This document shows, piece after piece, positions 49,079 to 63,888 of a stretch of 64,000 nucleotides of DNA. The stretch's first letter is position 1. Every line of letters begins with the position of its first letter. The translations under genes and the position numbers were made by a program. The DNA is taken from the NCBI GenBank assembly GCA_052246995.1, contig JBQPWD010000003.1:64001-128000 (forward strand), given 5' to 3'. Under the pieces are notes generated by a model. It searched no databases. It saw nothing but the letters and a program-made list of their open reading frames with translations, and was not told where the DNA came from. The DNA is from Candidatus Bathyarchaeota archaeon. GTDB lineage: Archaea > Thermoproteota > Bathyarchaeia > Hecatellales > Hecatellaceae.

Positions 49079-50026
49079 TTATGTTAAAATGTTGTTTTTG
49101 AATCTAATCATCCTCCAATTTTTAATGTAATCCTCTACTTGGGGAAGAGTTATAGGCGTAAAATGGGATTGTAATGCAAGCTCTTTTAAAGCATCAAACC
49201 CTAAAACTAAGCCGATAAACTCAGATATGTGGAGAACAGGAAGACTGAGTTTTTTAAATTCTTCATATTTTACAAACTCATCAAAAGTATAAAGACAGGT
49301 TGGACAGGTAACAACAACAAGGTTTGCACCAGTTTCTTTCATAGATTTAAGTTTAGCTTTAGTTATACTAACAGATAAGCTAGGGTTTTTAAGCGATGAA
49401 ACATTAAGCCTTACACCACAGCAAAGATGTTTTTCACCATATTCCACAACCTCTCCACCAAGTGTAGTTATAAGTTCTTCAAGAAAACCTGGATCTTCAG
49501 GATTACCTAAAACTTTTTCAGGAGAGGATTTTACATAATGGCATCCATAATGAACTGCTGCTTTAACTCCTTTAAGATTAATTTTTTGCTTTTCTAGTAT
49601 CCTGTTTTTGGCTTTGTAAAATACTTCGGATACATGAAAGATGTTAACATTCCAATCAGGTTTAACATTAAGTTCAAACAAAACTTTTTCAACTTCACGT
49701 ATAGATGAATTTTCTTTTATGTTTTTTAGTACCCGCAAAAATGTTCCATAGCATGTATCACAAATTGTTACCAGGTTTTTTGAGAATTTTTCTGCAACCC
49801 AAATATTCCACCCTGTAAGTGCTGTAAGAATTTTAAAATCTGCAAATCCTGAAAAATTTGCGAAACTTCCACAGCAAACCTCCTCATAGGAGGTGTAAGG
49901 TGTATAACCTAGATTTTTAAGAGCTTTAAGAGTTGAATACTCAATACCCGGATATCTATTTTTTGTTTGACATCCAAGAAAAATAAAAATGGGTCCCTTA
50001 TCAGGAATTTCCTCGACGCTTTTCAT
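49079..50026 (-). CDS. hdrB: Heterodisulfide reductase subunit B
   Basis: Two CCG domains (FLGC...CCG...C..C; HYGCH...CCG...CP.C). Confidence 0.88.
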   Translation of the reverse strand: MKSVEEIPDKGPIFIFLGCQTKNRYPGIEYSTLKALKNLGYTPYTSYEEVCCGSFANFSGFADFKILTALTGWNIWVAEKFSKNLVTICDTCYGTFLRVLKNIKENSSIREVEKVLFELNVKPDWNVNIFHVSEVFYKAKNRILEKQKINLKGVKAAVHYGCHYVKSSPEKVLGNPEDPGFLEELITTLGGEVVEYGEKHLCCGVRLNVSSLKNPSLSVSITKAKLKSMKETGANLVVVTCPTCLYTFDEFVKYEEFKKLSLPVLHISEFIGLVLGFDALKELALQSHFTPITLPQVEDYIKNWRMIRFKNNILT

Positions 50027-50556
50027 TTGATACCACTCTTATAGTTTAGGCTTAGCTTTGAAAGAAACTCTTCAAATCCAAGTTGTCTTAACATATTCCT
50101 AATTTTTTCTAAAGACTCCTTGGATATTTCTGGTGAAGGGTTGAGCCCGAGAAACCTTCTAATATTTATTCTTCCAAATGGCAGGATTGATCCTGTATTT
50201 AGTAGGTTTTTTGCAACCTCCTCCACTAACTTATAAACATCATTAGCAAAACCCTCTGCCAGCAAGTTTATCCTTAGCTTGATAACAATTTCCGGTAAAG
50301 GTATACTATGGGGACAAAGTTTACTGCAATCAAAACATAAAAAACACTTCCAAGCTACTTCTAAACCATCTTTAGAAGAAGCTAAGTTTTCTTTTCTAAG
50401 CATTTTTAATGAGAGAAGCCTTACATTAAAATCTTTTTGTAAAAATCTTGTTGAAGGACAGACGGAAGAACATAAACCACATTGAAGACAAGTTTTTACA
50501 AGACTGAAAAGTTCTACGCTTTCTCCATTTTTGATAAACTTTTCTTTTGGGGCCAA
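50023..50556 (-). CDS. hdrC: Heterodisulfide reductase subunit C
   Basis: CLQCGLCSSVCP and W.C.LC.DC...CP; overlaps the hdrB start. Confidence 0.85.
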   Translation of the reverse strand: MAPKEKFIKNGESVELFSLVKTCLQCGLCSSVCPSTRFLQKDFNVRLLSLKMLRKENLASSKDGLEVAWKCFLCFDCSKLCPHSIPLPEIVIKLRINLLAEGFANDVYKLVEEVAKNLLNTGSILPFGRINIRRFLGLNPSPEISKESLEKIRNMLRQLGFEEFLSKLSLNYKSGIK

Positions 50557-50638
50557 TATTTACCTATGCTACCTCCAAAAAATTAATTATAGAATCTCCT
50601 AATATGACTTGCTTTAGCTTTAAAGTAAGAAAAAACTG

Positions 50639-51301
50639 CTACTTGAAAAAGTTTAAAACCGACCCCTTCATTCTAAGATACTCTTCACCAATTTCTTCAA
50701 TAATTTTATCAAGATTTTCAGCAGCTTCTTTTGAAACTTTGGGGCCTATCCTTACTGCAAGAAACTCATCACCAAATGGATTTTTATCTAAAATTTTGAA
50801 ACCTGCTCTTCTTACTAAAGAAATAAGCATCCTCTTATATGGCTCTCTTTCCTCTGGTTTGCTGATATCCCAATTTTCAACGGTTCCTCTAGCCAAGACA
50901 ATCTTATCATCAAAAAAACTATCTTTTGATGCAAAATCTACTAACCTTTTTGCTACACCATTTTCTCTCCATTTTTTGCTAACTTCTATTGCAGCATCAT
51001 AAACATAGGAGTAGGTAAAAACTCTTCTACCAATAGAAATTTTAAACTCTTCAACAACGATAAAGCCAACTATAACATTTTCACTTGTATATGCAACTGC
51101 AACGTAGCTTCCATCTTCAACTCTTTTTATAAGCTCTTCCTTCTCCTTTTCGGGGGAATTAAAGTATGTTGTAATACCTTCATCAATCTTCATAGATTTA
51201 AGCCAGTTTGCAGAGGCGCATCTTCCTATGAAGATTTGCGGTTGAGAAGCTTTACTGTATACAGCGGGTTCTGTTGTTAAAGCCTCTCTTACCGCTTCCA
51301 A
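50639..51301 (-). CDS. GNAT acetyltransferase, AcuA-like
   Basis: AIEVS..WR..GVAK.L acetyl-CoA motif; ..NWD and Y..ML......GF resemble AcuA. Confidence 0.65.
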   Translation of the reverse strand: MEAVREALTTEPAVYSKASQPQIFIGRCASANWLKSMKIDEGITTYFNSPEKEKEELIKRVEDGSYVAVAYTSENVIVGFIVVEEFKISIGRRVFTYSYVYDAAIEVSKKWRENGVAKRLVDFASKDSFFDDKIVLARGTVENWDISKPEEREPYKRMLISLVRRAGFKILDKNPFGDEFLAVRIGPKVSKEAAENLDKIIEEIGEEYLRMKGSVLNFFK

Positions 51302-51394
51302 TGTCCCCCTAGGAAATTGTGAAGAACATACGATATATACTTTGTCTTTAAAGATATAGGAGTAAAATAAACAAATATATAAAATTTATAGCTT

Positions 51395-52756
51395 TTAACT
51401 TTCCGATGAAACTTTACTTAAAATTTTATCCAACCTTCCAACCTCAAAAGAGATTTTTAAAGCTGGATTCTTCAAAACTTCAAAAAGAAGGTTGATTTTC
51501 TTTTCAACCTTAACTTTTAAATCCTCAGGAAGATTCCACTCCTCCCTACTAACCCTTGTTGAAGGTTTATAGAGCTCAAGCTCAACCTTAACGATTCGAG
51601 GATAGGTTAATGTGGGAATTGGAGGCTTAACCTCCCTGCCAACAAGTTTTTCAAAAAAACGTATCCTAGCTTTTTCCCAAGGTTTTTCTAAGCTTAAATT
51701 TTTAATGCTATATTCTTCCCTTGAAACTTTAATAACAAGTTCTGGACATGCTTTTTCACATGCACCACAAAAAATGCAGAAATCTTCAACAACATCGATC
51801 TTCTTACCTGTCTTAGGAATGTAGATAACATTTAGGGGGCAAATGTTAAAACAATTTTTACAGCCAACAGGGTCGCATTTTTCAATGTTAACAAAGTTAA
51901 CCTTACCTTTAAATGGTTTTTTAACGTTTATAGCTTCGACAGGGCAAACAGATGCACATAAACCACATTTAACACATTTTTCATCATCCACACTTATTTC
52001 TCCCTCAATTTTTGGTTCAACAATTTTTCTTGGTGAAGAATATTCACATTCAACCCTCAAAGCCTCAGAAGGACAAATTTTTTCACACAAGCCACAATAA
52101 TCACATTTATCTTCATCAATTTTTAAACCTACAGCAGGTTTAAAGTTGGGTGGTTTGGCTTCAACCCAAAAAATCTTTATAGCATCACAAAGCATTTCAC
52201 ATAAGCCACAATAGCAGCATTTATCTTCGTAAAAAGTTATTTTACCTTTAGCTTCAACATTACTTGTTTCATACTTTACAAGTATATCCTTTTTTGGAAC
52301 TTTAACATTAACATCTATAGCCTTTCTTTGGCAAACCTTACTACAAAGGAGACACGGGAGACACTTTTCCTTGTTAAGATTATATTCACCATCAATTTTA
52401 GAGTATTCATCTTCAACCTTTAACCCATTAATACTCATCTTAAAAGAGTTAAAAATGCAAACAGAAACACATAAACCGCAAAAAGTACATTTTTCTCCTT
52501 CAACATTTACTAACGGTGCTTCTTCCAACCTTCCAGCAGCAACTTCAACAACAGGTCCAAGAGTTATAGCATCCCAAGGACAAATTAAACATAAACTGCA
52601 ACCAGTACATTTTCCAACTTCATAATCTAAAACTTTTTTTAGTAAACTGGTTTTCCAGCTATATCTTAAGGTTGAATTTATAATGCTAAACTCTACTATA
52701 GGTTTTTCTTTAAGTTTTTCACTCAAATTGTATATACCCTCCATTAAATCTTGCAA
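51395..52756 (-). CDS. fwdF: Polyferredoxin, FwdF-like
   Basis: About ten CxxCxxC...CP-type motifs; the N-terminal 'KC.GC..C..CP.DAI.LGP' and 'KC.FCG.C...C.F' resemble FwdF. Confidence 0.75.
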   Translation of the reverse strand: MQDLMEGIYNLSEKLKEKPIVEFSIINSTLRYSWKTSLLKKVLDYEVGKCTGCSLCLICPWDAITLGPVVEVAAGRLEEAPLVNVEGEKCTFCGLCVSVCIFNSFKMSINGLKVEDEYSKIDGEYNLNKEKCLPCLLCSKVCQRKAIDVNVKVPKKDILVKYETSNVEAKGKITFYEDKCCYCGLCEMLCDAIKIFWVEAKPPNFKPAVGLKIDEDKCDYCGLCEKICPSEALRVECEYSSPRKIVEPKIEGEISVDDEKCVKCGLCASVCPVEAINVKKPFKGKVNFVNIEKCDPVGCKNCFNICPLNVIYIPKTGKKIDVVEDFCIFCGACEKACPELVIKVSREEYSIKNLSLEKPWEKARIRFFEKLVGREVKPPIPTLTYPRIVKVELELYKPSTRVSREEWNLPEDLKVKVEKKINLLFEVLKNPALKISFEVGRLDKILSKVSSES

Positions 52757-55124
52757 CCTCTAAAAGTTCAGCACCAGTAGGCCCCATCTTTTCAACCCTC
52801 TCAACAAAGCCTGTTATTATTTTAGCTAGCTTTTCACCTTCACCTGCAGACGCACTTGCAATTTGAAGTCTTTCAGGGTTTAAACCTGATGCTTTTAAGA
52901 CTTCCCTAAGCTTTTTAACTCTTTCAGCAGCTTTTTTAAAACCTGTTCTGTAGTGGCAATCGTTTTCATAACAACCAATAATTAAAACACCATCTGCACC
53001 AAGCCTAAATGCCTCTAAAATGTGAAAGATGCTTACTCTAGCTGTACATGGAACTTGAATTATTCTAATGTTTGTTGGATAAGGAATTCGGCTTATTCCA
53101 GCCATGTCTGCAGCAGCATAACCACACCATTTGCAGAGAAAACCAACTATAACAGGTTTTTCTCTTTTATGCTTTAATAAAGCTTCAATCATATTGTGTA
53201 TTTGCTTATCAGTTACAGGTGGGAGGGTTATAGCCTCAACAGGGCAAACAGATGCACATGCACCACAACCCATACATGCAACTTCATTAACAATAATTTT
53301 CTTATCAACCCTGCTTAAGGCGGCATAGTCGCAAGTTTTAACGCAAAGTCCACAACCAGTACATTTCTCAGCGTCTACTATTGGAGATTCAACTTCAAAC
53401 TCTAACTCCTTGGATGAGAGGAGGGAAATGGCTCTTAAGGCTGACAAACCTGCATGAGCAACAGACTGGGTTATATCCTTTGGGCCTTGGACTGTTCCAG
53501 CAATAAAAATTCCCCTTGTAAATGTGTCAGCAGGTCTAAGTTTTGGATGTTCCTCCAAGAAAAATCCATTTTCGTCTAGTGGTATTCTTAAAACCCTTGA
53601 AAGCTCGTAGTTGTCGTTGTTTGCATCGATTCCAACACTTAAAACCACCAAGTCATAATCTTCAAATTTTGCTTCACACGTTAAAGTATCCTCAAAAAAA
53701 ACTCTAAGCTTATCTTTAACCTTAACAACCCTGCCAACCCTACCTCTAATAAACCTTACGCCTGCACTTTGAGTTTTAAGATATGCCTCCTCATGACCTT
53801 TGCCTGAAGCTCTAACATCCGTGTAAAAAACTGTTACATCAATTTCCGGGTGAAGAATTTTAATCTCCATAGCTTGCTTCATAGCATACATACAGCAAAC
53901 ATTACTACAATATATTTTTCCAAGTTTTTGGGACCTGCTTCCAACGCATTGAATAAAGCATATTTTTTTAGGTTTACTACCATCTGATGGACGTAAAAGT
54001 CGACCTTTAGTTGGACCTGTAGGGTTAACAAGTCTTTCAATTTCAGCACCAGTTACTACATCAAGATATCTACCGTAACCATATTGTTCAACTTTTTTAG
54101 GGTCTATGAGCTGAAAACCTGTTGCAACAATTATTGCGCCAACTTTTTCTTCAATCACGTTGTCTTTATCTTCAAAGTTTATTGCTTCTTTATCGCAAAC
54201 TCCGTTACATGCTCTACATCCAACACAATTTTCAACATCAATGTATGGCGCTACTGGAACAGCTTCAGGAAAAGGTTTAACTATGGCTTTCCTTTTTCCC
54301 AGTCCATACTCATACTCGTTTACAACCTCAACCGGACAAACTTCTAAACACTTATCACAACCACTACACTTAGACTCGTCAACGTATCTTGCTTTCCTTA
54401 AAAGTTTAACTTGATAGCTTCCAGCAGCACCTTTAACATCTAAAAGGCTGCATAACGTGTAAACTTTAACGTTTGGATGGTTGTATACCTCAGACATTAA
54501 AGGTCCAAGGATACAGATACTGCAATCCAACGTTGGAAAAACCTTATCCCACTTAGCCATATGCCCACCAAGAAAACCTGTTTTCTCGGCGAGAATAACC
54601 TTTAAACCTGAGTTTGCAAGGTTTAAAGCTGCAGTTATCCCCGCAACACCGCCACCCAAAACTAAAACTTTACGTTCAACAGGAACCTTAATTTTTTTAA
54701 CCTCAACAGCGTTTTTAACGGAAAATATTGCCATTTCAATAAGATCTAAAGCTTTAGTTGTAGCTTTCTCAACATCCTGCCAGTGAACCCAGCTGCACTG
54801 TTCCCTTATGTTTGCAATTTGCAGAAAACCTCTGTTTATACCCGCCTCCTCAACAACTTTTTTAAAAAGTTCCCCATGAAGCCTTGGCGTACATGTTGCT
54901 ACAACAACTCTATTTAATTTTTCGTTTTTAATTACATCCTTAATTTTTTGAAGTCCTGTATCGCTGCATAGATGTATTTCCTCAACCGCTACAACACCTT
55001 CAACATTTGAAAAGTAGTCTATAAGCTTTTTAACATCAACAAATCCTGCAATGTTTGTTCCACAATGACAAATAAAAACACCTATTCTTTTTTCGTCACT
55101 GCTTTTAAGGTTTCTCTCTCTCAC
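52719..55124 (-). CDS. hdrA: HdrA fused to C-terminal MvhD domain
   Basis: IGVFICHCG.NI, NIREQCSWVH, GGGVAG, FPTLDC..CIL, IQCVGSR, CS.VCCMY, GPKDI; C-terminal MvhD GFLC.WCGY.AAD, PC..RV, GADGV...GC...CHY. Confidence 0.93.
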   Translation of the reverse strand: MRERNLKSSDEKRIGVFICHCGTNIAGFVDVKKLIDYFSNVEGVVAVEEIHLCSDTGLQKIKDVIKNEKLNRVVVATCTPRLHGELFKKVVEEAGINRGFLQIANIREQCSWVHWQDVEKATTKALDLIEMAIFSVKNAVEVKKIKVPVERKVLVLGGGVAGITAALNLANSGLKVILAEKTGFLGGHMAKWDKVFPTLDCSICILGPLMSEVYNHPNVKVYTLCSLLDVKGAAGSYQVKLLRKARYVDESKCSGCDKCLEVCPVEVVNEYEYGLGKRKAIVKPFPEAVPVAPYIDVENCVGCRACNGVCDKEAINFEDKDNVIEEKVGAIIVATGFQLIDPKKVEQYGYGRYLDVVTGAEIERLVNPTGPTKGRLLRPSDGSKPKKICFIQCVGSRSQKLGKIYCSNVCCMYAMKQAMEIKILHPEIDVTVFYTDVRASGKGHEEAYLKTQSAGVRFIRGRVGRVVKVKDKLRVFFEDTLTCEAKFEDYDLVVLSVGIDANNDNYELSRVLRIPLDENGFFLEEHPKLRPADTFTRGIFIAGTVQGPKDITQSVAHAGLSALRAISLLSSKELEFEVESPIVDAEKCTGCGLCVKTCDYAALSRVDKKIIVNEVACMGCGACASVCPVEAITLPPVTDKQIHNMIEALLKHKREKPVIVGFLCKWCGYAAADMAGISRIPYPTNIRIIQVPCTARVSIFHILEAFRLGADGVLIIGCYENDCHYRTGFKKAAERVKKLREVLKASGLNPERLQIASASAGEGEKLAKIITGFVERVEKMGPTGAELLEVARFNGGYIQFE

Positions 55125-55214: not shown

Positions 55215-55706
55215 TTGGGAAGCGTGTCAAGGGAAATGGGTGAAGTTAGAAAAATTACACCTCTTATGGTTTACAGATATCTTCCAGGTGTAAACTGTAA
55301 AAAGTGTGGTTACTCTACATGCATGATGTTTGCATCAAAACTTTTATTAAAGGAGGCAAAAATTGAGGATTGCCCTATACTTTTTGACCAGAAGTATAAG
55401 GAAAAGCTTGAAGGTTTAAGGAATCTTTTAAAACCTTTACTTGAAACTTATGAAACAGGGTTAAAGCTTGATGAAGAAAAATGTACTGGATGTGGTAATT
55501 GTGTTGTTGTATGTCCAGTTAACATCATGATAGACCCTCAAATTGCTAAAGGTTTTGGAACTATGAGCAATGAGGTTATTATGAGGGTTGAAAATGGTAA
55601 ACTCAAAATAATAAACCTTAAAAAATGTAGAAGATTTCCACCAAGCAGGCTTGATTGTAGAGTTTGTGAAGAATTTTGTTATACTGAAGCTATCAAAGTT
55701 TACTAG
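55215..55706 (+). CDS. fwdG: FwdG-like ferredoxin with N-terminal Fe-S (CdhE/RnfB-type) domain
   Basis: LPG.NCKKCGY.TCM.FA...CP, then C.GCGNCVVVCPVN...G.G...RVENG, typical of FwdG. Confidence 0.7.
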   Translation: MGSVSREMGEVRKITPLMVYRYLPGVNCKKCGYSTCMMFASKLLLKEAKIEDCPILFDQKYKEKLEGLRNLLKPLLETYETGLKLDEEKCTGCGNCVVVCPVNIMIDPQIAKGFGTMSNEVIMRVENGKLKIINLKKCRRFPPSRLDCRVCEEFCYTEAIKVY

Positions 55707-55956: not shown

Positions 55957-56601
55957 CTACTTTAAGGTTGTTTTTTGCCCTGTTGCAATGTAGATTATAG
56001 ATTTGCAGATGTAGGTTGCGTGGTCAGCTATTCTTTCAAGGTAGTTCATTATTAAAACACTGGAAATTACACACTTGGTTGTGGTGTCCGCTTTTTCAAC
56101 CAGTTTACCGAAGAAGTTGAAATATAATTTATCTACTTCTTTTTCTTTCTCAACTATTCTTTCAGCAAGATGCGGGTCGTAGATTTTAAGGGAGTCTATG
56201 CTTAGCTTAATCATGCTTAAGGCTTTATCTCCAACCTCTTTTATATGTGAGGTTATCCATTGGTTACAGTCTCTTATTCCTCCTACTCGTTTGTTTGTAT
56301 ACGATATGTTTAGGGCATATCTTCCGAAGCGGGCAAAATCATAAGCAATCTTCATGTAAGACTTTATTGTTCTAAGGTCTGAGGCTACTGGTTGAAATCT
56401 TGCAATAAGCTCAAAAGCTTTATCTTCTACGTTGTCTGCCATTGAAATTAGAGTATTTGACATTTCTCGAACTTGGTTGTAGATGTTTCTGCTTTCAAAG
56501 CATTCTAGCATGGTTGTTAAAACAGTTTGGTATGCTAATTCTCCCATTTTCTGGAGGATTGTTGAAAGTTCTTTAAGGCCAGAATCTATCATTCTCCCCA
56601 T
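55957..56601 (-). CDS. phoU: Phosphate transport regulator PhoU
   Basis: LIARFQPVASDLR, LERIADHA..I; last gene of the pst operon. Confidence 0.92.
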   Translation of the reverse strand: MGRMIDSGLKELSTILQKMGELAYQTVLTTMLECFESRNIYNQVREMSNTLISMADNVEDKAFELIARFQPVASDLRTIKSYMKIAYDFARFGRYALNISYTNKRVGGIRDCNQWITSHIKEVGDKALSMIKLSIDSLKIYDPHLAERIVEKEKEVDKLYFNFFGKLVEKADTTTKCVISSVLIMNYLERIADHATYICKSIIYIATGQKTTLK

Positions 56602-56615
56602 GACTTCCTCACCTT

Positions 56616-57374
56616 TTAACCAAACTCTCCGGTTATATATCTTTCTGTCAACTTGTGTTTGGGATTTTCAAAAACCTGTTTTGTTGGGCCATATTCCACT
56701 AGTTCACCAAGATAAATAAATGCTGTATAATCTGAAACTCTCGCTGCTTGTTGCATGTTATGGGTTACAATTACAATAGTGTAGTTTTCAGCCAGTTTTC
56801 TGATAAGAACTTCTATTTTCGCTGTTGCCATGGGATCAAGGGCTGAACATGGTTCATCCATCAATAGGACCTCCGGATTGACAGCTAGAGCGCGTGCTAT
56901 ACAAAGCCTTTGTTGCTGTCCACCAGAGAGGCTAGCTCCGGATTTATTTAAGTCATCTTTAACTTCATCCCAAAGGTTGGCGAGTTCTAAACTTCGCTTG
57001 ACTACTGCATTAATGGTTTTTTTGTCGCGGACTCCATTCAATTTTAAACCTGCTGCTACATTCTCATAGATGGACATCATTGGAAATGGATTTGGTTTTT
57101 GAAAAACCATACCAATTTTTTTCCTTATCGTAACAGGGTCAACACCGTTGCCGTAAATGTTTACACCATTAAATACCACTTTTCCAGAAACGCGGGCATC
57201 AGGGTTTGTTTCATGCATTCGATTAAGACAGCGGATAAGAGTTGTTTTGCCGCATCCGGAAGGTCCTATAACAGCTGTTACGGCATTTTCCTCAATTTTC
57301 ATGTTAATGTTTTTTAATACATGCTTTACACCAAACCACGCGTTTAAATCTTCTATAATAAACTTGGATGCCAT
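56616..57374 (-). CDS. pstB: Phosphate ABC transporter ATPase
   Basis: [41 protein letters not shown]; start corrected to the ATG at 57374, coupled to the pstA stop. Confidence 0.95.
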
Positions 57375-58213
57375 TAATACTTCTCCCTCGTAAATATTCT
57401 CACAACTATGCTTATTCCTAAAACGATGACTATAAGCACAAATGCAGACCCCCATGCAAGAGCTATCCAGTTTTCGAAGGGCGACGTGGCAAAAACAAAA
57501 ATGTTTAAGGCAAGGTTAGCAGCTGGCCTGTCTAATCCTGCAAACCACCATCTCCAATATCCCATTGTAACTAACACTGGAGCAGATTCTCCAGCTATCC
57601 GTGCAATGGAAAGAAGTATACCTGTAACTATTGCTTTTTTGGCACTGTTAACCACGATTGTGAGGATTGTTTTCCATCTTGGAATTCCAAGGGCAAGAGC
57701 TGCCTCACGGATGCTTAGAGGCACAATTTTTAACGCTTCCTCGGTTGCTCTAGTGACTATTGGAATCATTATGATAGCTAGTGCAAAGGCTGCAGCAATT
57801 ACTGAAAACCCAATCAAACAAACGATTAATGTATAGACAAAAACTCCAATGACTATGGATGGGATACCATTCAAAACGTCATCGAGGAACCTTACAATAG
57901 TAGACAGCTTATGCTCATTATATTCGCTTAAGAAGATGCCTGACATTAATCCTACTGGAATACCTATAAGAGAAGCCAAGCCAACAGTTATCAAAGTACC
58001 CTGTATTGCATTTGCTACACCACCATTCTCTTCACCAACTGTTGGAGTTGGTTTTGTAAAGAAATCGATACTGATTACTAGGCACCCTCTTAAAACTACT
58101 TCATATAGTATGCTAAATAATGGAATTAAAGCTATGATCAGGGCTAGATAAACAAAAAAACGCGCCATGTTGTCTTTGAATACTCTAAACTTATAGTAGT
58201 TTAATTTCTTCAT
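57374..58213 (-). CDS. pstA: Phosphate ABC transporter permease PstA
   Basis: [34 protein letters not shown]. Confidence 0.93.
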
Positions 58214-59202
58214 TCTTTTGCTATACCTCTAACTAGTTTAAGGGTTCGCCAAACAATTAGCCGCGCAAAAACATTAACTGCCAAGGTTACTAGTAACAAG
58301 ACTAACGCAACATTTATCAACGCGCTAACATGAAGGTCGTACACGGCTTCCAAAAGCTCGTTTGCAATTATTGCCGACATAGTATACCATGCATCAAAAA
58401 GCGAGGACGGCCAAACGTGAAACTTGTTTCCAATAACCATTGTTATTGCCATAGTTTCTCCAATAGCACGCCCCAGTCCCAGAATTACCGCGCCGATAAT
58501 CCCTGAGCGGGCATAGCTAATTACTATTCTAGTGGTTTCCCATTTTGTGGCGCCAAGGGCTATCATTGCCTCTCGTTGAGCGTTTGGTACTGCTGAAAAA
58601 AGGTCTCGCATTACAGCGGAAACTGTTGGAGTAATCATTATCGCTAAAACCATTCCGCCTGTAAGAAAACCACCCCCATAAATAGGTCCAGAAAACATTG
58701 GAATGAACCCGAAAAGTGTTTGTATATGTGAATAAACGTTTTCGCGTAAAAACGGTATCAGAACAAATATTCCCCAAAGCCCGTAGATAACGCTTGGGAC
58801 GGCGGCTAAAAGCTCCACTAGAAAAGAAACCACGAATCCGAATTTTCTAGGCATATACTCGGAAAGGGCTAAGCTTACTCCAAGGCTTATAGGTACACCT
58901 ATAAGAAGCGCTAAGGCTGAGGTAACAATCGTACCCAATATTAATGGTAACGTCCCAAAAACTTGGAATACAGGATCCCACTTAATGCCCAAAAGAAAGC
59001 TTATTCCAAAAGTTTGTATGGAAAGCCATGATCCTTTAACAAGCTCATAAACAATCATACTTAAAAGCACAAGGATGCTGGAGGCGAATAAGGCGCATAT
59101 AAGCTTAAAGAATTGGTCGCCTTTGAAATGGTTGTTTGAAATTGAAAACGATTTAAGCTTTAGATTGTGAAAAAAAGTATTTTTTAAAGAATGTTTCTTC
59201 AT
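58210..59202 (-). CDS. pstC: Phosphate ABC transporter permease PstC
   Basis: WDP, VELLAAVPSVIYGLWG, ALGATKWE, GRAIGETMA; start taken at ATG 59202 to avoid overlap with pstS. Confidence 0.93.
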   Translation of the reverse strand: MKKHSLKNTFFHNLKLKSFSISNNHFKGDQFFKLICALFASSILVLLSMIVYELVKGSWLSIQTFGISFLLGIKWDPVFQVFGTLPLILGTIVTSALALLIGVPISLGVSLALSEYMPRKFGFVVSFLVELLAAVPSVIYGLWGIFVLIPFLRENVYSHIQTLFGFIPMFSGPIYGGGFLTGGMVLAIMITPTVSAVMRDLFSAVPNAQREAMIALGATKWETTRIVISYARSGIIGAVILGLGRAIGETMAITMVIGNKFHVWPSSLFDAWYTMSAIIANELLEAVYDLHVSALINVALVLLLVTLAVNVFARLIVWRTLKLVRGIAKE

Positions 59203-59206
59203 TTTA

Positions 59207-60325
59207 TCACTTGTGCAGTTGCTGTCCATTGTAGGTCATCAAGCGGATTGTTGCCTCATTATGTGTAATGATGCTTGACGGTAGTGGAACATAATATAAG
59301 TCGGGTGCATACTTTTGTCCATCATGTGTAGCCCACCATAGAAATTCTACTAGAGCCTTTGCAGTAGTCTCATCCATATTAGGCAGAACGTTTAACTCTT
59401 TGTATACTAGGATGTAAGAGAAACTCGTTATTGGGTAGGCGCCAATGGCCTTCGTGTTTTTGGATAAACTATCAACTATTGAAACTCTTGACCAGTCTGC
59501 ATCCCCCTTTGGTAGAGTGATTGCGGCATAATCTGCGGCTTTGGCAAATGAGGTAATGTTTGGTTCAACAAACTCGCCTGCAGCGTTTTGAACATACCCA
59601 TAGGTAAGGTTGTTCTTTTTTGCATAAGTAAACTCTACATATCCTATTGAGTACGGAGTTTGTTGGACGAGGGCGGCAACCCCGTCATTTCCCTTTGCTC
59701 CTAGACCCACAGGCCAGTTTACGGATGTACCTTTCCCAACGGTTACAGCCCACTCAGGGCTGATATTCGATAAGTAGCTAGTCCAGATAAATGTTGTTCC
59801 GCTTCCATCAGACCTGCGTATCACGATTATTTTCTGGTCTGGAAGGCTGATATCAGGATTTATTGCAACAATTTTCGGATCACTCCATTTTGTGATTTTT
59901 CCCAGATATATTTCTGCCAAAATTTCTCCCGTAAATTTTAGCCCTTTTGGTATGTCTGGGATGTTGTAGATTGGAACAACGCCGCCTATAGTAATCGGAA
60001 TGTGTAGAGTGTTTGGAGCTTTCGTAGCCTGAACTTCTGTGAGTGGTACATCACTGACTGCAAAATGCACAGTCTTCTCAATATGTTGCTGAATTCCGCC
60101 ACCGCTTCCTATTCCCTGGTAGTTAATTTGAATGTTAGGCTTAATTTTATGATACTCCGCAGCCCATTTATCAATTAGCGGAAATGGAAACGTCGCACCT
60201 ACACCATTCAACGTTAGTGTTTGCGTTGTTGATGTAAATTGGTAGACAAACGTGCAGGCTACAACTATTACAACCACCACTATCGGAATGGCAATTTTAT
60301 AGAGAGCTCTCATGGGGCTCACCAT
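59207..60325 (-). CDS. pstS: Phosphate-binding protein PstS
   Basis: N-terminal TM anchor, GATFP.P, YQGIGSGGG, RSDGSGTT, GNDGVA, YPI. Confidence 0.95.
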   Translation of the reverse strand: MVSPMRALYKIAIPIVVVVIVVACTFVYQFTSTTQTLTLNGVGATFPFPLIDKWAAEYHKIKPNIQINYQGIGSGGGIQQHIEKTVHFAVSDVPLTEVQATKAPNTLHIPITIGGVVPIYNIPDIPKGLKFTGEILAEIYLGKITKWSDPKIVAINPDISLPDQKIIVIRRSDGSGTTFIWTSYLSNISPEWAVTVGKGTSVNWPVGLGAKGNDGVAALVQQTPYSIGYVEFTYAKKNNLTYGYVQNAAGEFVEPNITSFAKAADYAAITLPKGDADWSRVSIVDSLSKNTKAIGAYPITSFSYILVYKELNVLPNMDETTAKALVEFLWWATHDGQKYAPDLYYVPLPSSIITHNEATIRLMTYNGQQLHK

Positions 60326-60768
60326 TTCTTAATTTTAGAATATGGGAAAAAATTCTATATACCTTTTCCAAATAGAATATATATTTGAAAATTGACTATA
60401 TAGTTAACAAAGAAAACAATAAAGATTCAACCCCGAAAATCATTTACATTTTTTCTCACCAAAACTGGGGCTTTAAGAGGAATTATAATATGTCCTTTTT
60501 AAAGTGTACGAAGAAAAATTCAGTTTTCGGTTATAAGCGGAAGAAGGTTAACAACTTAATGTTTTAGTTAACAAGGGTTTAAATCAGTTTAAAACTAAGT
60601 TGAATTTTTCATGTTTTTGATGGCTTGTGATGGCTTATAACGACTTTAAGCTTAGTTTCCTCTGTAGTGGTTTATATGCTATTATTATCTTTTAGATAGA
60701 TGAGCACGTAAGAGTTTGGTAGTTATGAGTGTAGCCAACTATTAAAAAGTTTAAAAATATTTTAGATA

Positions 60769-62070
60769 ATGGAGGATGGACAAGTGAATTTGGTAAAATT
60801 AACATGTACAGGATGCTCGCTTCTATGTGAGGATGTGAATGTTGTTTTTGATGGTAAAGGTAATGTGAAGAATGTTTTTGGTATGTGTAAGGTTGGGTTT
60901 GAGAGGTTTAAACATACCAGCTTGAATAGTAGGTTGACAAGTTCAGCTATCAGGGAGGAGGATAAATCTGTAAATATCTCGGTTGATGAGGCAGTTGAAA
61001 AGGTTGCTGAAATGCTTAAAGCCTCAAAAAAACCTTTACTTTATGGTTGGGGTTATTGTTCCTGTGAAACTGTAAAGCTTGGTATAGATATTGCAAGAAA
61101 GCTTAATGGTGTTTTTGATTCTCAAGCAAGCAAGGGATACTGGTATGCATATATGCAAGCTAAAAACTATGAAAGCGTTGACAATGTTCTTGAAAAAACT
61201 CTTGATTATGCCAACCATGTGGTGTTTTTGGGTTTTAATCCAGCTGAAACCCATCCTAGGCATGCTAGTAGATACTCTATTTTTCCTAGAGGGGCTGGAG
61301 TTGAGAAGGGGGTTGAGGGTAGAAGTATAACTGTCGTTGATAGTGAAACTACAAAAACCTCTAGGATAGCCCATAACAGGTTTATACTTGAAGCTGAGGA
61401 CCAGTTAAAACTTATTAAAGCTGTTGGTGGTAGGCTTAAAGGAGAAAAGCCCATAATAAACGTTCCAAACGTATCTGAGGTAAAACTTTTAGAGCTTGTT
61501 AAAGACTTTAAAAGCTCAAACTACGTTTCAATCTTTTATGGTTCAAGTTTTTTCGAGGGTGGAGATTACAGGTTAAAGGTTGATACAATCTACCAGCTTG
61601 TTGAAAAAATAAGGGATGTTAACGTTAAATGTACAGCTTTACCCATGCCAAAACCATACAACATGGTTGGTGCTGTTAAAACAACCTTAACGGAAACAGG
61701 TTATCCATGTGCGGTGGATTTTTCGGGTGATGGTGAAAAGTTTAACGTTGAAAAAAACTCTGTTTTAAACATGGTTGTTAATGGTGAGGTTGATTTAGCT
61801 TTAATTGTAGGCTCAAACATCTTTACAGAACTTTCAAGGCTTGCACGTAAAAGCTTTATGAAGATACCTCTTATCGTTCTAGATTTTGTTGAAAGTTTAA
61901 CCGTTAAAAACTCTGGAATTTACATAGCTCCAGCCATAACAGGTTTTGAAGCGGGTGGAACAGTTTACAGGGTTGATGAAAAAAGAATTCAACTTGCTCC
62001 CCCATTTAAACCACCAGAAAACATTTTATCCGATGAAGACTTTTTATCGCGGCTCTACAAAAAAATTTGA
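60769..62070 (+). CDS. fwdB: Formylmethanofuran dehydrogenase subunit B paralog with degenerate active site
   Basis: C.GC..LC.D...C..G Fe-S motif, PL.YGW, HPRH.SRY..FPRG, GYP.AVDF, G.E.GGT.YR.D; the CHG and RGH motifs are absent. Confidence 0.75.
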   Translation: MEDGQVNLVKLTCTGCSLLCEDVNVVFDGKGNVKNVFGMCKVGFERFKHTSLNSRLTSSAIREEDKSVNISVDEAVEKVAEMLKASKKPLLYGWGYCSCETVKLGIDIARKLNGVFDSQASKGYWYAYMQAKNYESVDNVLEKTLDYANHVVFLGFNPAETHPRHASRYSIFPRGAGVEKGVEGRSITVVDSETTKTSRIAHNRFILEAEDQLKLIKAVGGRLKGEKPIINVPNVSEVKLLELVKDFKSSNYVSIFYGSSFFEGGDYRLKVDTIYQLVEKIRDVNVKCTALPMPKPYNMVGAVKTTLTETGYPCAVDFSGDGEKFNVEKNSVLNMVVNGEVDLALIVGSNIFTELSRLARKSFMKIPLIVLDFVESLTVKNSGIYIAPAITGFEAGGTVYRVDEKRIQLAPPFKPPENILSDEDFLSRLYKKI

Positions 62071-62089
62071 AATTTACAGTCTTCTTTTT

Positions 62090-63073
62090 TCAAACCAACT
62101 TTACCCCTGAATACGGGTTGTTTATTTTTAGTTGCGGGTTTGCAGGTATTGCGCAGCATGCACCATAAAAGTTGACTTTATACCCTTCTTTTCTAGCATG
62201 GTTGTAAATATTTTTTGACGGTATGGCTATACCCGACACTCCAGCGTTAAAAGTTAAAACCTCAACTTTTTCCTTTATTATGCCCTTACCCTTGGCGCAT
62301 CCAAGAATTGTTGGAACCTCGGGTAACATTAACCTTGCAGCTGCAACTATCCTTGCAACATCTAAAGGATTAATCATAACATTTTGCATAAATGTTCCAG
62401 GTATTGGTGTTAAAGCTGTTACAACAACTATTGTAGGCTTAATTTTTGAAATCATTTTTAAGGCTTTAGCTTCACCTTTAATTTGACCAAAGTCTAAGCC
62501 TACACAAACATGTGGGGATATAATTTTAAATCCAGCCTCCTCGGCAGCTTTAAGGGTTTCTAGGTATTTGTTTGTGTCAACCTTAAAACCATAAACCCTT
62601 TTAACAGTTTCAGCTGAACCTACAACATCCAAAGCTACGCCATCAATTCCACAATCTACCAAGTACATAGCTTTTTCCAAGGTTAGGAAGCCCGTATGGG
62701 CTAAAATTGTTAAACCTGTTTCTTCCTTGATTTTTTTAATAGCTTTACCATACCTTTCAATAGGAACCGTAAAGTTTGGTAGGCAGCCTCCGCTAACCAG
62801 AAATCCTTTAACATTTTCATGCTTAAATTTTAAACATATTTTTAGAAGTTTTTCAGGTGTTTCAGCGTGAAGCATCATACTTAAAAGTTTACGTTGGCAA
62901 TGTAAACAGTTTAAAGAGCAGAAGTTTCCAGTTATTGATATTGCTGGGAAAAAACTTGATGTAATGTAGAAGTTTATCTTTTTACCAAAAAGCATATTCG
63001 CATCTTTCCTGATTTTAGAAAAAATGTTTTGAAGAGAGTCATCCTCACTACTAAAAACTTTTTCCAGCTGCAA
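62090..63073 (-). CDS. lipS1: Biotin-synthase-like radical SAM protein, LipS1-type lipoyl synthase component
   Basis: ISITG..C.LNC.HC, LVSGG, PH...G, LGCAK (GC(M/A)R-like), C-terminal CC; directly downstream of a lipoate ligase gene. Confidence 0.7.
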   Translation of the reverse strand: MQLEKVFSSEDDSLQNIFSKIRKDANMLFGKKINFYITSSFFPAISITGNFCSLNCLHCQRKLLSMMLHAETPEKLLKICLKFKHENVKGFLVSGGCLPNFTVPIERYGKAIKKIKEETGLTILAHTGFLTLEKAMYLVDCGIDGVALDVVGSAETVKRVYGFKVDTNKYLETLKAAEEAGFKIISPHVCVGLDFGQIKGEAKALKMISKIKPTIVVVTALTPIPGTFMQNVMINPLDVARIVAAARLMLPEVPTILGCAKGKGIIKEKVEVLTFNAGVSGIAIPSKNIYNHARKEGYKVNFYGACCAIPANPQLKINNPYSGVKLV

Positions 63074-63075
63074 CT

Positions 63076-63888
63076 TTAACTCTCCAACAAAAAGTTTTTA
63101 CTGATTTTTCCATGCTTTAAATCAAATTTATAAAGCCAAGTTTTTGACTGGTATTTTTGGTTAAGCTTTAAAGCTAAATTAAGCTCTTCAACTTTAAGAG
63201 TATCTTCAAAAAGTTGAATGTTTAATGTTTCTTCAAAACATGTTCGCAAAATTTTTTTAGCCTCCTCATACTCAACAGACCTCTTCAATTCTCTTTTAAT
63301 GCTGGTTAAACCATGCTCAGGATTTTTAGGATTTCCTGGAAGATTTTTTAAAGGATTTTTTAAAACCTTACACATGGTTTCATAGTCAAAATCAAGTAGA
63401 ATATCCCCGTTAACCATTATGAGATTTCCATTTTGAAATCCTGCATTACCTGAAATCTTTTTTCCGTTAGCTATTATTGCGTTAAGTTTTTCATCGTAGA
63501 ATGTATCTGTTAAACCTAACTTTTTAAGTGTTAAAACAATACTTTTAAGTAAAACTTTGTAGGCTTTTTCCATGGAAAACGGTATGTTTGAATGTTTAAC
63601 ATTAACTATAATTGAGTAGAGAAGCTGATTTAAATCGCAGTAAACAGTCCCTCCCCCAAGAATTCTTCTAACAATGCTAATTCCCCTACTTTTACATTCA
63701 TCAACATCAACCTCATCCAAAACATTTTGATGATATCCAACATATACACATGGAGGGTTAACTCTCCAAAAAAGTATAGTGTTTGGTACTTTACCATGTG
63801 AACAGAAAAAGCCTACTGCTTCAAAAATGGATGCGCTGGTAAAGCCGTCGATGGTTTTAAGGTCTATAAGACGCCACATACAACTCAT
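63076..63888 (-). CDS. lplA: Lipoate-protein ligase, catalytic (LplA N-terminal) domain
   Basis: WRLID, VG.HQ, RR..GGGTVY.D, NGKKISGNA, Y....W. Confidence 0.88.
   Translation of the reverse strand: MSCMWRLIDLKTIDGFTSASIFEAVGFFCSHGKVPNTILFWRVNPPCVYVGYHQNVLDEVDVDECKSRGISIVRRILGGGTVYCDLNQLLYSIIVNVKHSNIPFSMEKAYKVLLKSIVLTLKKLGLTDTFYDEKLNAIIANGKKISGNAGFQNGNLIMVNGDILLDFDYETMCKVLKNPLKNLPGNPKNPEHGLTSIKRELKRSVEYEEAKKILRTCFEETLNIQLFEDTLKVEELNLALKLNQKYQSKTWLYKFDLKHGKISKNFLLES

Follow-up and report, generated by a model that had tools for sequence, protein, structure and literature searches.

The locus and its FwdB-like protein

The window, a 64,000-nucleotide stretch from the genome of a Candidatus Bathyarchaeota archaeon (G000:C3:64001-128000; genome of 1.53 Mb, rated 100% complete), encodes a relative of FwdB, subunit B of the tungsten or molybdenum (W/Mo) enzyme formylmethanofuran dehydrogenase (Fwd). 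This protein, hereafter the paralog, is a full-length member of the FwdB family that lacks the metal ligand and the catalytic residues and retains the Fe–S cluster motif. Upstream of its gene lie an RnfB-like ferredoxin gene (Fer) and a heterodisulfide reductase (Hdr) cluster (Table 1).

Table 1. Features of the locus, with their positions in the window (ORF, open reading frame)
Feature	Position	Strand	Remarks
HdrB-like subunit	49079..50026	-	two CCG domains
HdrC-like subunit	50023..50556	-	
220-aa ORF with weak GNAT matches	50639..51301	-	occupies the FwdD-like (PF01568) slot of G023, G004 and G053
FwdF-like polyferredoxin	51395..52756	-	453 aa; NF042909 244.7 bits, cut-off 375
HdrA2-type subunit with C-terminal MvhD/FlpD domain	52719..55124	-	NF040770 1031 bits, cut-off 1100
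RnfB-like ferredoxin (Fer)	55215..55706	+	163 aa; conserved upstream partner of the paralog
phoU-pstB-pstA-pstC-pstS operon	55957..60325	-	names from translations, no family-library scan
TATA-box-like element TTTAAAAATA	60748..60757	+	about 12-21 nt before the paralog's ATG; read from sequence
FwdB-like paralog	60769..62070	+	433 aa; from ORF listing, profile, alignment and model
LipS1-type lipoyl synthase and lipoate-protein ligase catalytic-domain protein	62090-63888	-	immediately downstream of the paralog gene, opposite strand; lipoyl synthase at 220.2 bits (cut-off 230)

A preliminary description of this gene had noted that D..A.VCHGP of FwdB is replaced by DSQASKGYWY with no in-frame TGA, that PMRGHYN is replaced by PMPKPYN, and that the N-terminal CxxCxxxC...C and the HPRH.SRY motif persist in a full-length ORF. 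Codons and alignment bear out each of these points. The ORF contains no internal stop and its terminal codon is TGA, so neither an in-frame TGA nor a selenocysteine is encoded; GTG at 60784 corresponds to the start codon position used by the paralog's relatives. Positions 61117-61146 read GAT TCT CAA GCA AGC AAG GGA TAC TGG TAT (DSQASKGYWY), 61642-61662 encode PMPKPYN, and 60805-60828 encode CTGCSLLC, with Cys40 lying within MCKVG. In the HMMER alignment to the FwdB chain 5t5i_B, DNTASVCHGPS pairs with DSQASKGYWYA and PMRGHYN with PMPKPYN, which places Gly123 and Tyr124 at Cys118 and His119 of FwdB, and Pro294, Lys295 and Pro296 at Arg288, Gly289 and His290. The canonical FwdDB of the same genome, 33% identical to the paralog, gives the same residue pairing at both motifs. 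The four Fe–S cysteines (Cys13, Cys16, Cys20 and Cys40) are invariant across a 75-row alignment.

The FwdB/FmdB profile of NCBIfam (TIGR03129) scores the paralog at 313.7 bits, under its cut-off of 327.8, and Pfam yields a weak MopB match and nothing else. In a single-sequence HMMER search at E ≤ 0.001, five FwdB chains were the sole matches among solved structures; 6s6y_B, the bacterial FwdB descendant FhcB, was missed. Apart from one Planctomycetota cluster that has no Pfam family in common, an ESM Atlas search returned only clusters named FwdB. Modelled with AlphaFold2 on the 75-row alignment (predicted local distance difference test, pLDDT, 95.8; predicted template modelling score, pTM, 0.93), the paralog is predicted to adopt the full FwdB fold, superimposing on the FwdB chain 5t5m_B over its whole length (TM-score 0.91, root mean square deviation 2.3 Å, 431 columns). 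The fit to the FhcB chain 6s6y_F is poorer (TMq 0.65); 7p61_G is matched at TMq 0.70. Furthermore, the replaced loop is itself conserved in three close relatives with 77-80% overall identity (DSQASRGYWYAYMQA, DNQASKGYWYAYAQA), in which PMPKPYN is identical. The window, the same-genus genome G011 and the relatives P0001-P0003 all have an open frame, at 77-99% identity, and the close relatives are labelled Bathyarchaeota or Bathyarchaeia.

A conserved ferredoxin partner

Fer combines a PF04060 Fe–S domain (Cys28/31/36/53) with a 2x[4Fe–4S] domain (Cys90/93/96/100 and Cys138/148/151/155), and twelve cysteines are conserved in its family, for which three clusters are expected by motif. A ferredoxin of about 158 aa lies directly upstream of the FwdB-like gene, on the same strand, in all seven clade genome loci (G011, G023, G035 twice, G074, G053 and G004). 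The pair is divergent from an MvhD-fused HdrA2 gene in G011, G023, G053, G004 and G074; HdrA2 is followed by a FwdF-like polyferredoxin in G011, G023, G053 and G004, and then by HdrC and HdrB in G011, G023 and G053. Full-length Fer and a close paralog co-occur in the identical 7 of 201 genomes of the class, G000 included, and G064 (72% complete) holds only a C-terminal paralog fragment at a contig end. A search of genome contigs with the paralog protein returned the same-genus relative only.

In the window, the phoU-pst operon separates Fer from the paralog; the two genes are 29 bp apart in G011 (L005). Both phoU-pst junctions are bridged by contigs of runs X1 and X2, which may be the source sample rather than independent of it. 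The operon interrupts the Fer/paralog module and is not part of it. HdrA2 remains divergent from Fer across a 90-bp intergenic region and lies 5.6 kb from the paralog.

Scanning metagenomes with the ferredoxin alignment yielded 29 loci with a clear relative (L047-L075). An ORF of the FwdB family lies directly downstream in 19 of them; in four, the ferredoxin sits in a cdhC-cdhD-Fer-cdhE-like arrangement (L057, L058, L060 and L069); two have downstream room without a FwdB relative, and four end at the ferredoxin. HdrA2 occurs with the pair in L005, L036, L039, L040, L041, L047, L048, L051, L054 and L059, as it does in the window. A FwdD-like ORF is present in 11 of 12 loci whose FwdB relative keeps the ligand Cys, the twelfth having 33 bp of room, and in 4 of 13 Cys-less loci (L040, L051, L055 and L056), a count that includes the window, the near-duplicates L005 and L047 and several short flanks. 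The canonical fwdDBAC of G004 has the same divergent layout as the Hdr/pair loci.

Canonical Fwd genes and the hydrolase alternative

About 80 kb downstream of the paralog, the genome carries a canonical fwdDB fusion (582 aa, VICHGP, AMRGHFN, 568.8 bits on TIGR03129). It is followed by fwdA and fwdC, the only copies in the genome, with ftr, mtd, mch and methanopterin-related genes around them (names from translations and family hits). The canonical fwdB and fwdACD, for which the preliminary description had proposed a search elsewhere in the genome, form one fwdDB-fwdA-fwdC operon (L004). No fwdF or fwdG adjoins this operon. The polyferredoxin of the HdrA2 cluster, the only FwdF-like protein found in the genome with this query, may be shared by the canonical Fwd enzyme. 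In a family scan of the genome, PF01568, the FwdD-type fourth domain, was confined to two proteins, the canonical FwdDB fusion and a 695-aa MopB protein on contig 7, and no PF01568 cap gene was detected for the paralog. The 695-aa protein (G000:C7:42320-45505, L003) carries its PF01568 within its own chain and is the genome's only other fourth-domain carrier.

One role proposed in the preliminary description was that of a scaffold in a formyl-methanofuran hydrolase, in which the paralog would replace FwdDB on FwdA and FwdC and formyl-methanofuran would be hydrolysed to free formate. The precedent is FhcB, a FwdB descendant without the catalytic Cys, His and Arg and without the fourth domain, which serves as a scaffold in a hydrolase complex (PMC6926001). 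Moreover, the genome has FwdA, FwdC and Ftr, and two distant Cys-less relatives (L055 and L056) adjoin fwdC and a FwdD-like gene. However, the single fwdA and fwdC both belong to the canonical operon, and fwdA, fwdC and ftr are absent from all seven clade genome loci and from the surroundings of the paralog in the window. A hydrolase scaffold would have no need of a ferredoxin, yet that is the invariant partner here, and the Fe–S domain kept by the paralog was dropped by FhcB; the absence of this domain from M. extorquens FhcB had been correctly stated (PMC6926001; 6s6y_B has only 361 aa). The genomic context thus lends this role no support, and we regard it as very unlikely. The other role proposed, that of an electron module or scaffold, is in keeping with the conservation of the ferredoxin partner and with the Hdr and polyferredoxin genes nearby.

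Association with CO dehydrogenase genes

Of the 13 Cys-less loci, 6 (L037, L038, L039, L049, L050 and L051) contain cdhA along with the pair; none of the 12 that keep the Cys does so. In Asgard-like contigs, a CooC-like ATPase gene stands between the FwdB-like gene and cdhA (in L048-L051 the ATPase follows the FwdB-like gene). This cdhA association is a lead, the loci being few and partly kin. It raises the alternative that the pair is an adaptor of CODH/ACS (the complex of carbon monoxide dehydrogenase with acetyl-CoA synthase), instead of or besides Hdr, and supplies CdhA with low-potential electrons with which CO2 is reduced to CO. The four Fer relatives inside cdhC-cdhD-Fer-cdhE-like operons are consistent with such an adaptor, as are L039 and L051, which carry HdrA2, the pair and cdhA together. 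In the window's genome, however, cdhABCD lies on another contig (C1:48772-54406), and in the window's genus the pair is linked to hdr genes only. Given that the case is built on neighbourhood, this alternative appears doubtful for the paralog.

Two observations on individual loci belong here. G035 carries two copies of a ferredoxin/FwdB-like (Tyr-Tyr)/cdhABCD arrangement (L037 = G035:C52 and L038 = G035:C45) with CdhA about 90% identical; they may represent a true duplication or two strains binned together. In L051, a gene for a Ras-family small GTPase (288-851) lies beside the FwdD-like/polyferredoxin/HdrA2/ferredoxin/FwdB-like/CooC-like/cdhA cluster, which suggests an Asgard-type host for this contig.

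Predicted paralog-ferredoxin complex

Co-folding the paralog with Fer from alignments gave a score of 0.92, against 0.00 for the best of three controls; of 157 solved complexes, 116 attain the score mark applied, as do 2 of 215 mismatched pairs. Three runs agreed in at least 94% of contacts, with a partner pLDDT of at least 81. On the paralog side, the predicted interface comprises residues 22-44 (the cluster domain including Cys40), 159-175 (the HPRHxSRY segment) and 196-200; on the Fer side, it comprises 90-99 and 153-157 (the cluster motifs) together with the loops 111-117 and 124-129. The model supports binding of Fer to the paralog. The HPRHxSRY motif lies at this predicted interface, which is therefore a possible reason for its survival in a protein without an active site.

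Family position and degeneration

When 1.84 billion cluster representatives were scanned with HMMER, 875 matched at E ≤ 0.001, and the best 150 of these were analysed. Motifs were counted in the 140 of these with a length of at least 340 aa, the 10 shorter ones being dropped; the counts are approximate, as loop alignment is imperfect at this divergence. Both Cys and Arg are missing, with all four Fe–S cysteines kept, in 83 of the 140; the Cys is kept and the Arg lost in 22, the reverse holds in 13, 15 are canonical, and 7 have incomplete Fe–S columns. Judged by their sequences, Fe–S-keeping, ligand-less FwdB relatives are clearly common. The paralog is thus a genuine Fe–S-keeping, Cys-less FwdB relative, as originally described, and not a singular one. 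Such genes bear the FwdB name, so counts of "fwdB" in metagenomes overstate the capacity for CO2 reduction; P0006, for example, has Tyr-Tyr at the ligand site and is named "formylmethanofuran dehydrogenase subunit B" by annotation pipelines.

A tree of 89 rows was computed with IQ-TREE in quick mode (LG+G4) after removal of the two motif regions. Left out of it were the second half of an overview tree except for 10 canonical outgroup rows, near-duplicates, N-terminally incomplete rows and the long-branch rows P0065, P0126, P0150 and P0159. The paralog belongs to a starred clade of seven rows, which comprises the window's group (with Gly-Tyr and PKP), a group with Tyr-Tyr and PGH, and P0004 (with Cys-His and AGH). 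These rows are nested in a larger starred clade of 30 rows, where Cys-His lineages occur alongside Cys-less ones. Over the whole tree, at least 14 changes of the Cys state are counted, and the Fe–S motif persists. The entire subfamily lacks Arg288 (AGH, SGH, VGH, GGH or IGH), and Cys-His is still present in some members; the paralog therefore descends from an Arg-less, Cys-bearing FwdB-like enzyme and not directly from canonical FwdB. This qualifies the earlier view of an independent archaeal pseudo-enzyme. Its archaeal origin apart from bacterial FhcB is supported by the nesting of the paralog among archaeal Cys-bearing relatives in the tree and by the single-sequence search that missed 6s6y_B; its direct degeneration from canonical FwdB is not.

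The degree of degeneration was gauged at the 95 columns in which 14 canonical FwdB sequences reach at least 85% conservation. Cys-His relatives keep 78 of these, Tyr-Tyr relatives 62 and the paralog 47. Changes peculiar to the window's lineage include G125W, D149N, W154L, R193E, D212Q, G260S, G295K, H296P, P351I, P356S and P387A, positions that, by analogy with MopB proteins, would bind the dinucleotide cofactor.

These changes bear on the alternative that the paralog is still a metallo-pterin enzyme with altered chemistry and another substrate, its cofactor being held without a protein ligand or by a different residue. A complete and confidently modelled fold, purifying selection (see below) and a replaced loop that is conserved in the clade all speak for it, and arsenite oxidase (AioA), a MopB enzyme, holds its cofactor without a protein ligand (PMC10100899). 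The neighbouring loop also offers Cys96 and Cys98. However, M. wolfeii FwdB also has a Cys at the position of Cys98, while its ligand is Cys118, and Cys96 is restricted to the closest relatives. Together with the lack of a FwdD-type cap in the genome, the alteration of 48 of the 95 canonical-conserved positions, including the bulky Tyr124, Trp125 and Tyr126 in place of His-Gly-Pro and Lys and Pro in the RGH motif, makes this alternative unlikely.

Two other groups of FwdB relatives were observed. P0061-P0169 form a large radiation of proteins of 400-480 aa that lack Cys118 and Arg288 and keep CxxCxxxC...C and HPRHxERY; one cluster of it is mostly Planctomycetota according to the Atlas. If these are FhcB-type subunits, many of them retain the Fe–S domain, unlike M. 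extorquens FhcB. Many Bathyarchaeia families (f8, f9, f11, f27 and f29) also carry a third kind of FwdB relative, with open frames of 480-520 aa (e.g., G008:C22:149671-151077 and G044:C14:20717-22114), which matches the paralog in two stretches, about 10-180 and 183-432, at E of about 1e-25.

Selection

Selection was assessed against the ortholog of G011 (76.5% amino-acid identity) with the NG86 and YN00 methods. For the paralog, the nonsynonymous rate (dN) is 0.135 and the synonymous rate (dS) 0.70, giving a dN/dS of 0.19 (NG86) or 0.09 (YN00). The NG86 ratios of other genes are 0.07 for Fer, 0.09 for HdrA2, 0.135 for the polyferredoxin, 0.15 for HdrB, 0.30 for the GNAT-like ORF, 0.13 for canonical FwdDB and 0.09 for FwdA. 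The paralog evolves somewhat faster than its neighbours (dN of 0.054 for HdrA2 and 0.038 for Fer) and yet is clearly constrained.

A functionless gene on its way to loss would accord with this higher dN, with the separation from the operon partner and with the paralog's degeneration, which exceeds that of all other clade members and goes with a long branch (0.49-0.65). Decay, which the preliminary description had named as one of two outcomes that would undo its interpretation, is nonetheless rejected because the dN/dS of 0.09-0.19 indicates purifying selection and the clade conserves the replaced loop. Every close relative listed above has an open frame, and the four Fe–S cysteines and the interface motif are retained. 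We thus consider gene loss highly improbable.

Proposed role of the paralog

The reading that we favour, at a probability of roughly 55%, is that the paralog is a non-catalytic Fe–S or scaffold subunit of an Hdr-type complex, descended from a W/Mo-pterin FwdB-like enzyme and paired with Fer. It most likely binds no W/Mo-bis(pyranopterin guanine dinucleotide), because it has neither the metal ligand nor the catalytic His and Arg, departs from active FwdB at many conserved positions and is without a FwdD-type cap gene; the fourth domain is required to cap the tungstopterin (PMC6926001). An N-terminal [4Fe–4S] cluster is presumably present, as its four cysteines indicate. Physical membership in an Hdr complex is inferred, as are the direction and purpose of electron flow.

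A putative model for the origin of this subunit can be proposed. Initially, the ancestral module would have consisted of a ferredoxin, an Arg-less FwdB-like protein and a FwdD-like cap, forming a W/Mo enzyme fed via Fe–S clusters. It would have been encoded with HdrA2 and a polyferredoxin, mirroring the arrangement of methanogens, in which the polyferredoxin carries bifurcated electrons from HdrA to Fwd, and Hdr, polyferredoxin and Fwd are joined in one wired supercomplex (PMC13580544). In the lineage of the window, losses would then have affected the ligand, the cap, the catalytic residues and many conserved positions, and selection would have continued to act on the fold, on the cluster motif and on the interface with the ferredoxin. 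The 2x[4Fe–4S] domain of Fer would dock on the Fe–S domain and the HPRHxSRY segment of the paralog, and the pair would probably work with the divergently encoded complex of HdrA2, FwdF-like polyferredoxin and HdrCB. Instead of reducing a substrate, the paralog may hold the three-cluster ferredoxin in place, or may end or extend the Fe–S wire.

Several points weigh against this reading. The score of the predicted complex may reflect likeness to the FwdB-FwdG ferredoxin contact of the solved Fwd complexes (5T5I and 7BKB), and not this pair's own binding. Loss of the Cys and loss of the cap are not strictly tied, as four Cys-less relatives keep a FwdD-like gene. In G035 the pair stands beside cdhABCD, and no hdr gene occurs in the G035 sequence at hand. 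Without a pterin, the paralog's cluster would lead nowhere unless some other partner docks at it, so "wire" may overstate a structural role. In the window, the paralog lies 5 kb from Fer behind an unrelated operon, and co-expression of the two is no longer guaranteed. Lastly, the absence of the cofactor is deduced from sequence alone, with AioA as a counter-example among MopB enzymes (PMC10100899), and the placement of the pair on HdrA2 and the polyferredoxin is likewise a deduction.

Beyond the window, we tentatively suggest that the non-catalytic Hdr-linked subunit proposed here belongs to an undescribed module of non-methanogenic Wood-Ljungdahl archaea (Bathyarchaeia and Asgard-like archaea), in which an RnfB-like three-cluster ferredoxin and an Arg-less FwdB-like protein plug into HdrA2-polyferredoxin bifurcating complexes. 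The W/Mo enzyme may have turned into a pure Fe–S adaptor several times independently, some lineages may hand electrons to CODH/ACS, and the paralog would be the most fully converted example. The pair standing back-to-back with HdrA2 and polyferredoxin bears on the supply and routing of very low-potential electrons in such archaea: it suggests that Bathyarchaeia and Asgard-like archaea possess a related wired assembly, and it defines five or six proteins that could be co-expressed. Furthermore, the ligand was lost repeatedly while the Fe–S domain stayed, which clearly exemplifies the conversion of an enzyme into a component with a structural or electron-handling function.

Comparison with known systems

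With the structurally known FwdB/FmdB proteins (5T5I/5T5M, 7BKB and 8RJA), the paralog shares the full-length fold, CxxCxxxC...C, HPRHxSRY and the predicted docking of a 2x[4Fe–4S] ferredoxin at the cluster domain. It differs from them in lacking Cys/Sec118 (Sec, selenocysteine), His119, Arg288 and His290, in scoring below the TIGR03129 cut-off, in having no FwdD cap and in having no fwdA or fwdC alongside. FhcB (6S6Y) also lacks the catalytic Cys, His and Arg and the fourth domain; unlike the paralog, it is bacterial, encoded in fhcBADC and without the entire Fe–S domain, 6s6y_B matching only the C-terminal part of the profile, whereas the paralog keeps this domain and is paired with ferredoxin and Hdr genes.

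Ligand-less MopB proteins tied to Hdr have precedents. ElpA of the Methanothermobacter Elp-Hdr complex (8RVU) is a truncated FdhA without molybdopterin, seen by cryo-electron microscopy in an Hdr bifurcating complex (PMC12350162). The partner of ElpA is the F420-binding ElpB, whereas the paralog is a full-length FwdB relative with an RnfB-like ferredoxin partner, and family scans of the cluster genes (HdrA2, polyferredoxin, HdrC, HdrB and Fer) gave no FdhB/ElpB-type match. "Molybdop", a Cys-less FdhA-like MopB protein that Methanosarcinales and anaerobic methanotrophic archaea (ANME-2/3) encode in type II hdrA-fdhB clusters, has been proposed as a structural subunit (PMC12054007). Like the paralog, it is encoded with hdrA; unlike it, "Molybdop" stands near FdhG/FhcB, comes with FdhB, is a prediction only and belongs to another lineage, with another partner and other host phyla. 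Nqo3/NuoG of complex I contains a MopB-derived domain that lost its cofactor and was kept as a structural part of an Fe–S-rich complex (PMC10100899); it represents a distant lineage related to cytoplasmic formate dehydrogenases and is fused into a 900-aa subunit. The same paper notes in passing some FwdB-family matches without the Cys and groups them with FhcB (PMC10100899).

Several traits come together in the present case: descent from FwdB, an Fe–S domain that has been retained, partnership with an RnfB-like ferredoxin and, among non-methanogenic archaea, a setting of Hdr/polyferredoxin (or cdh) genes. The literature searched, in the portions available, holds no description of this combination or of the ferredoxin/FwdB-like pair; the supplements of PMC12054007 (Fig. 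S3 alignments) and PMC10100899 (trees and data sets) might include such sequences.

Other observations at the locus

The weak-GNAT ORF fills the FwdD-like slot in both the window and G011. A candidate FwdD-like gene in this slot, the plus-strand ORF 50547-51002, was rejected, being unlike the FwdD-like protein of G023 (E 8.9) and without a Pfam match. One contig of run X5 (90-95% alike) skips 50626-51367 exactly and has 14 other letters instead, its short side measuring 30 letters; as a single contig, this is a weak hint that suggests the GNAT-like ORF to be a variable insert.

TTTAAAAATA may be the paralog's own promoter, in use after its separation from the Fer gene. RNA-Seq run X8 contains contigs of 150-282 nt with 0-2 mismatches on the paralog (60990-61139 and 61971-62174), HdrA2, the polyferredoxin and pstS, which give no strand or level and may include DNA carry-over. 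Runs X1 and X2 are labelled metatranscriptomic and look DNA-like, with contigs of 5-8 kb across intergenic regions.

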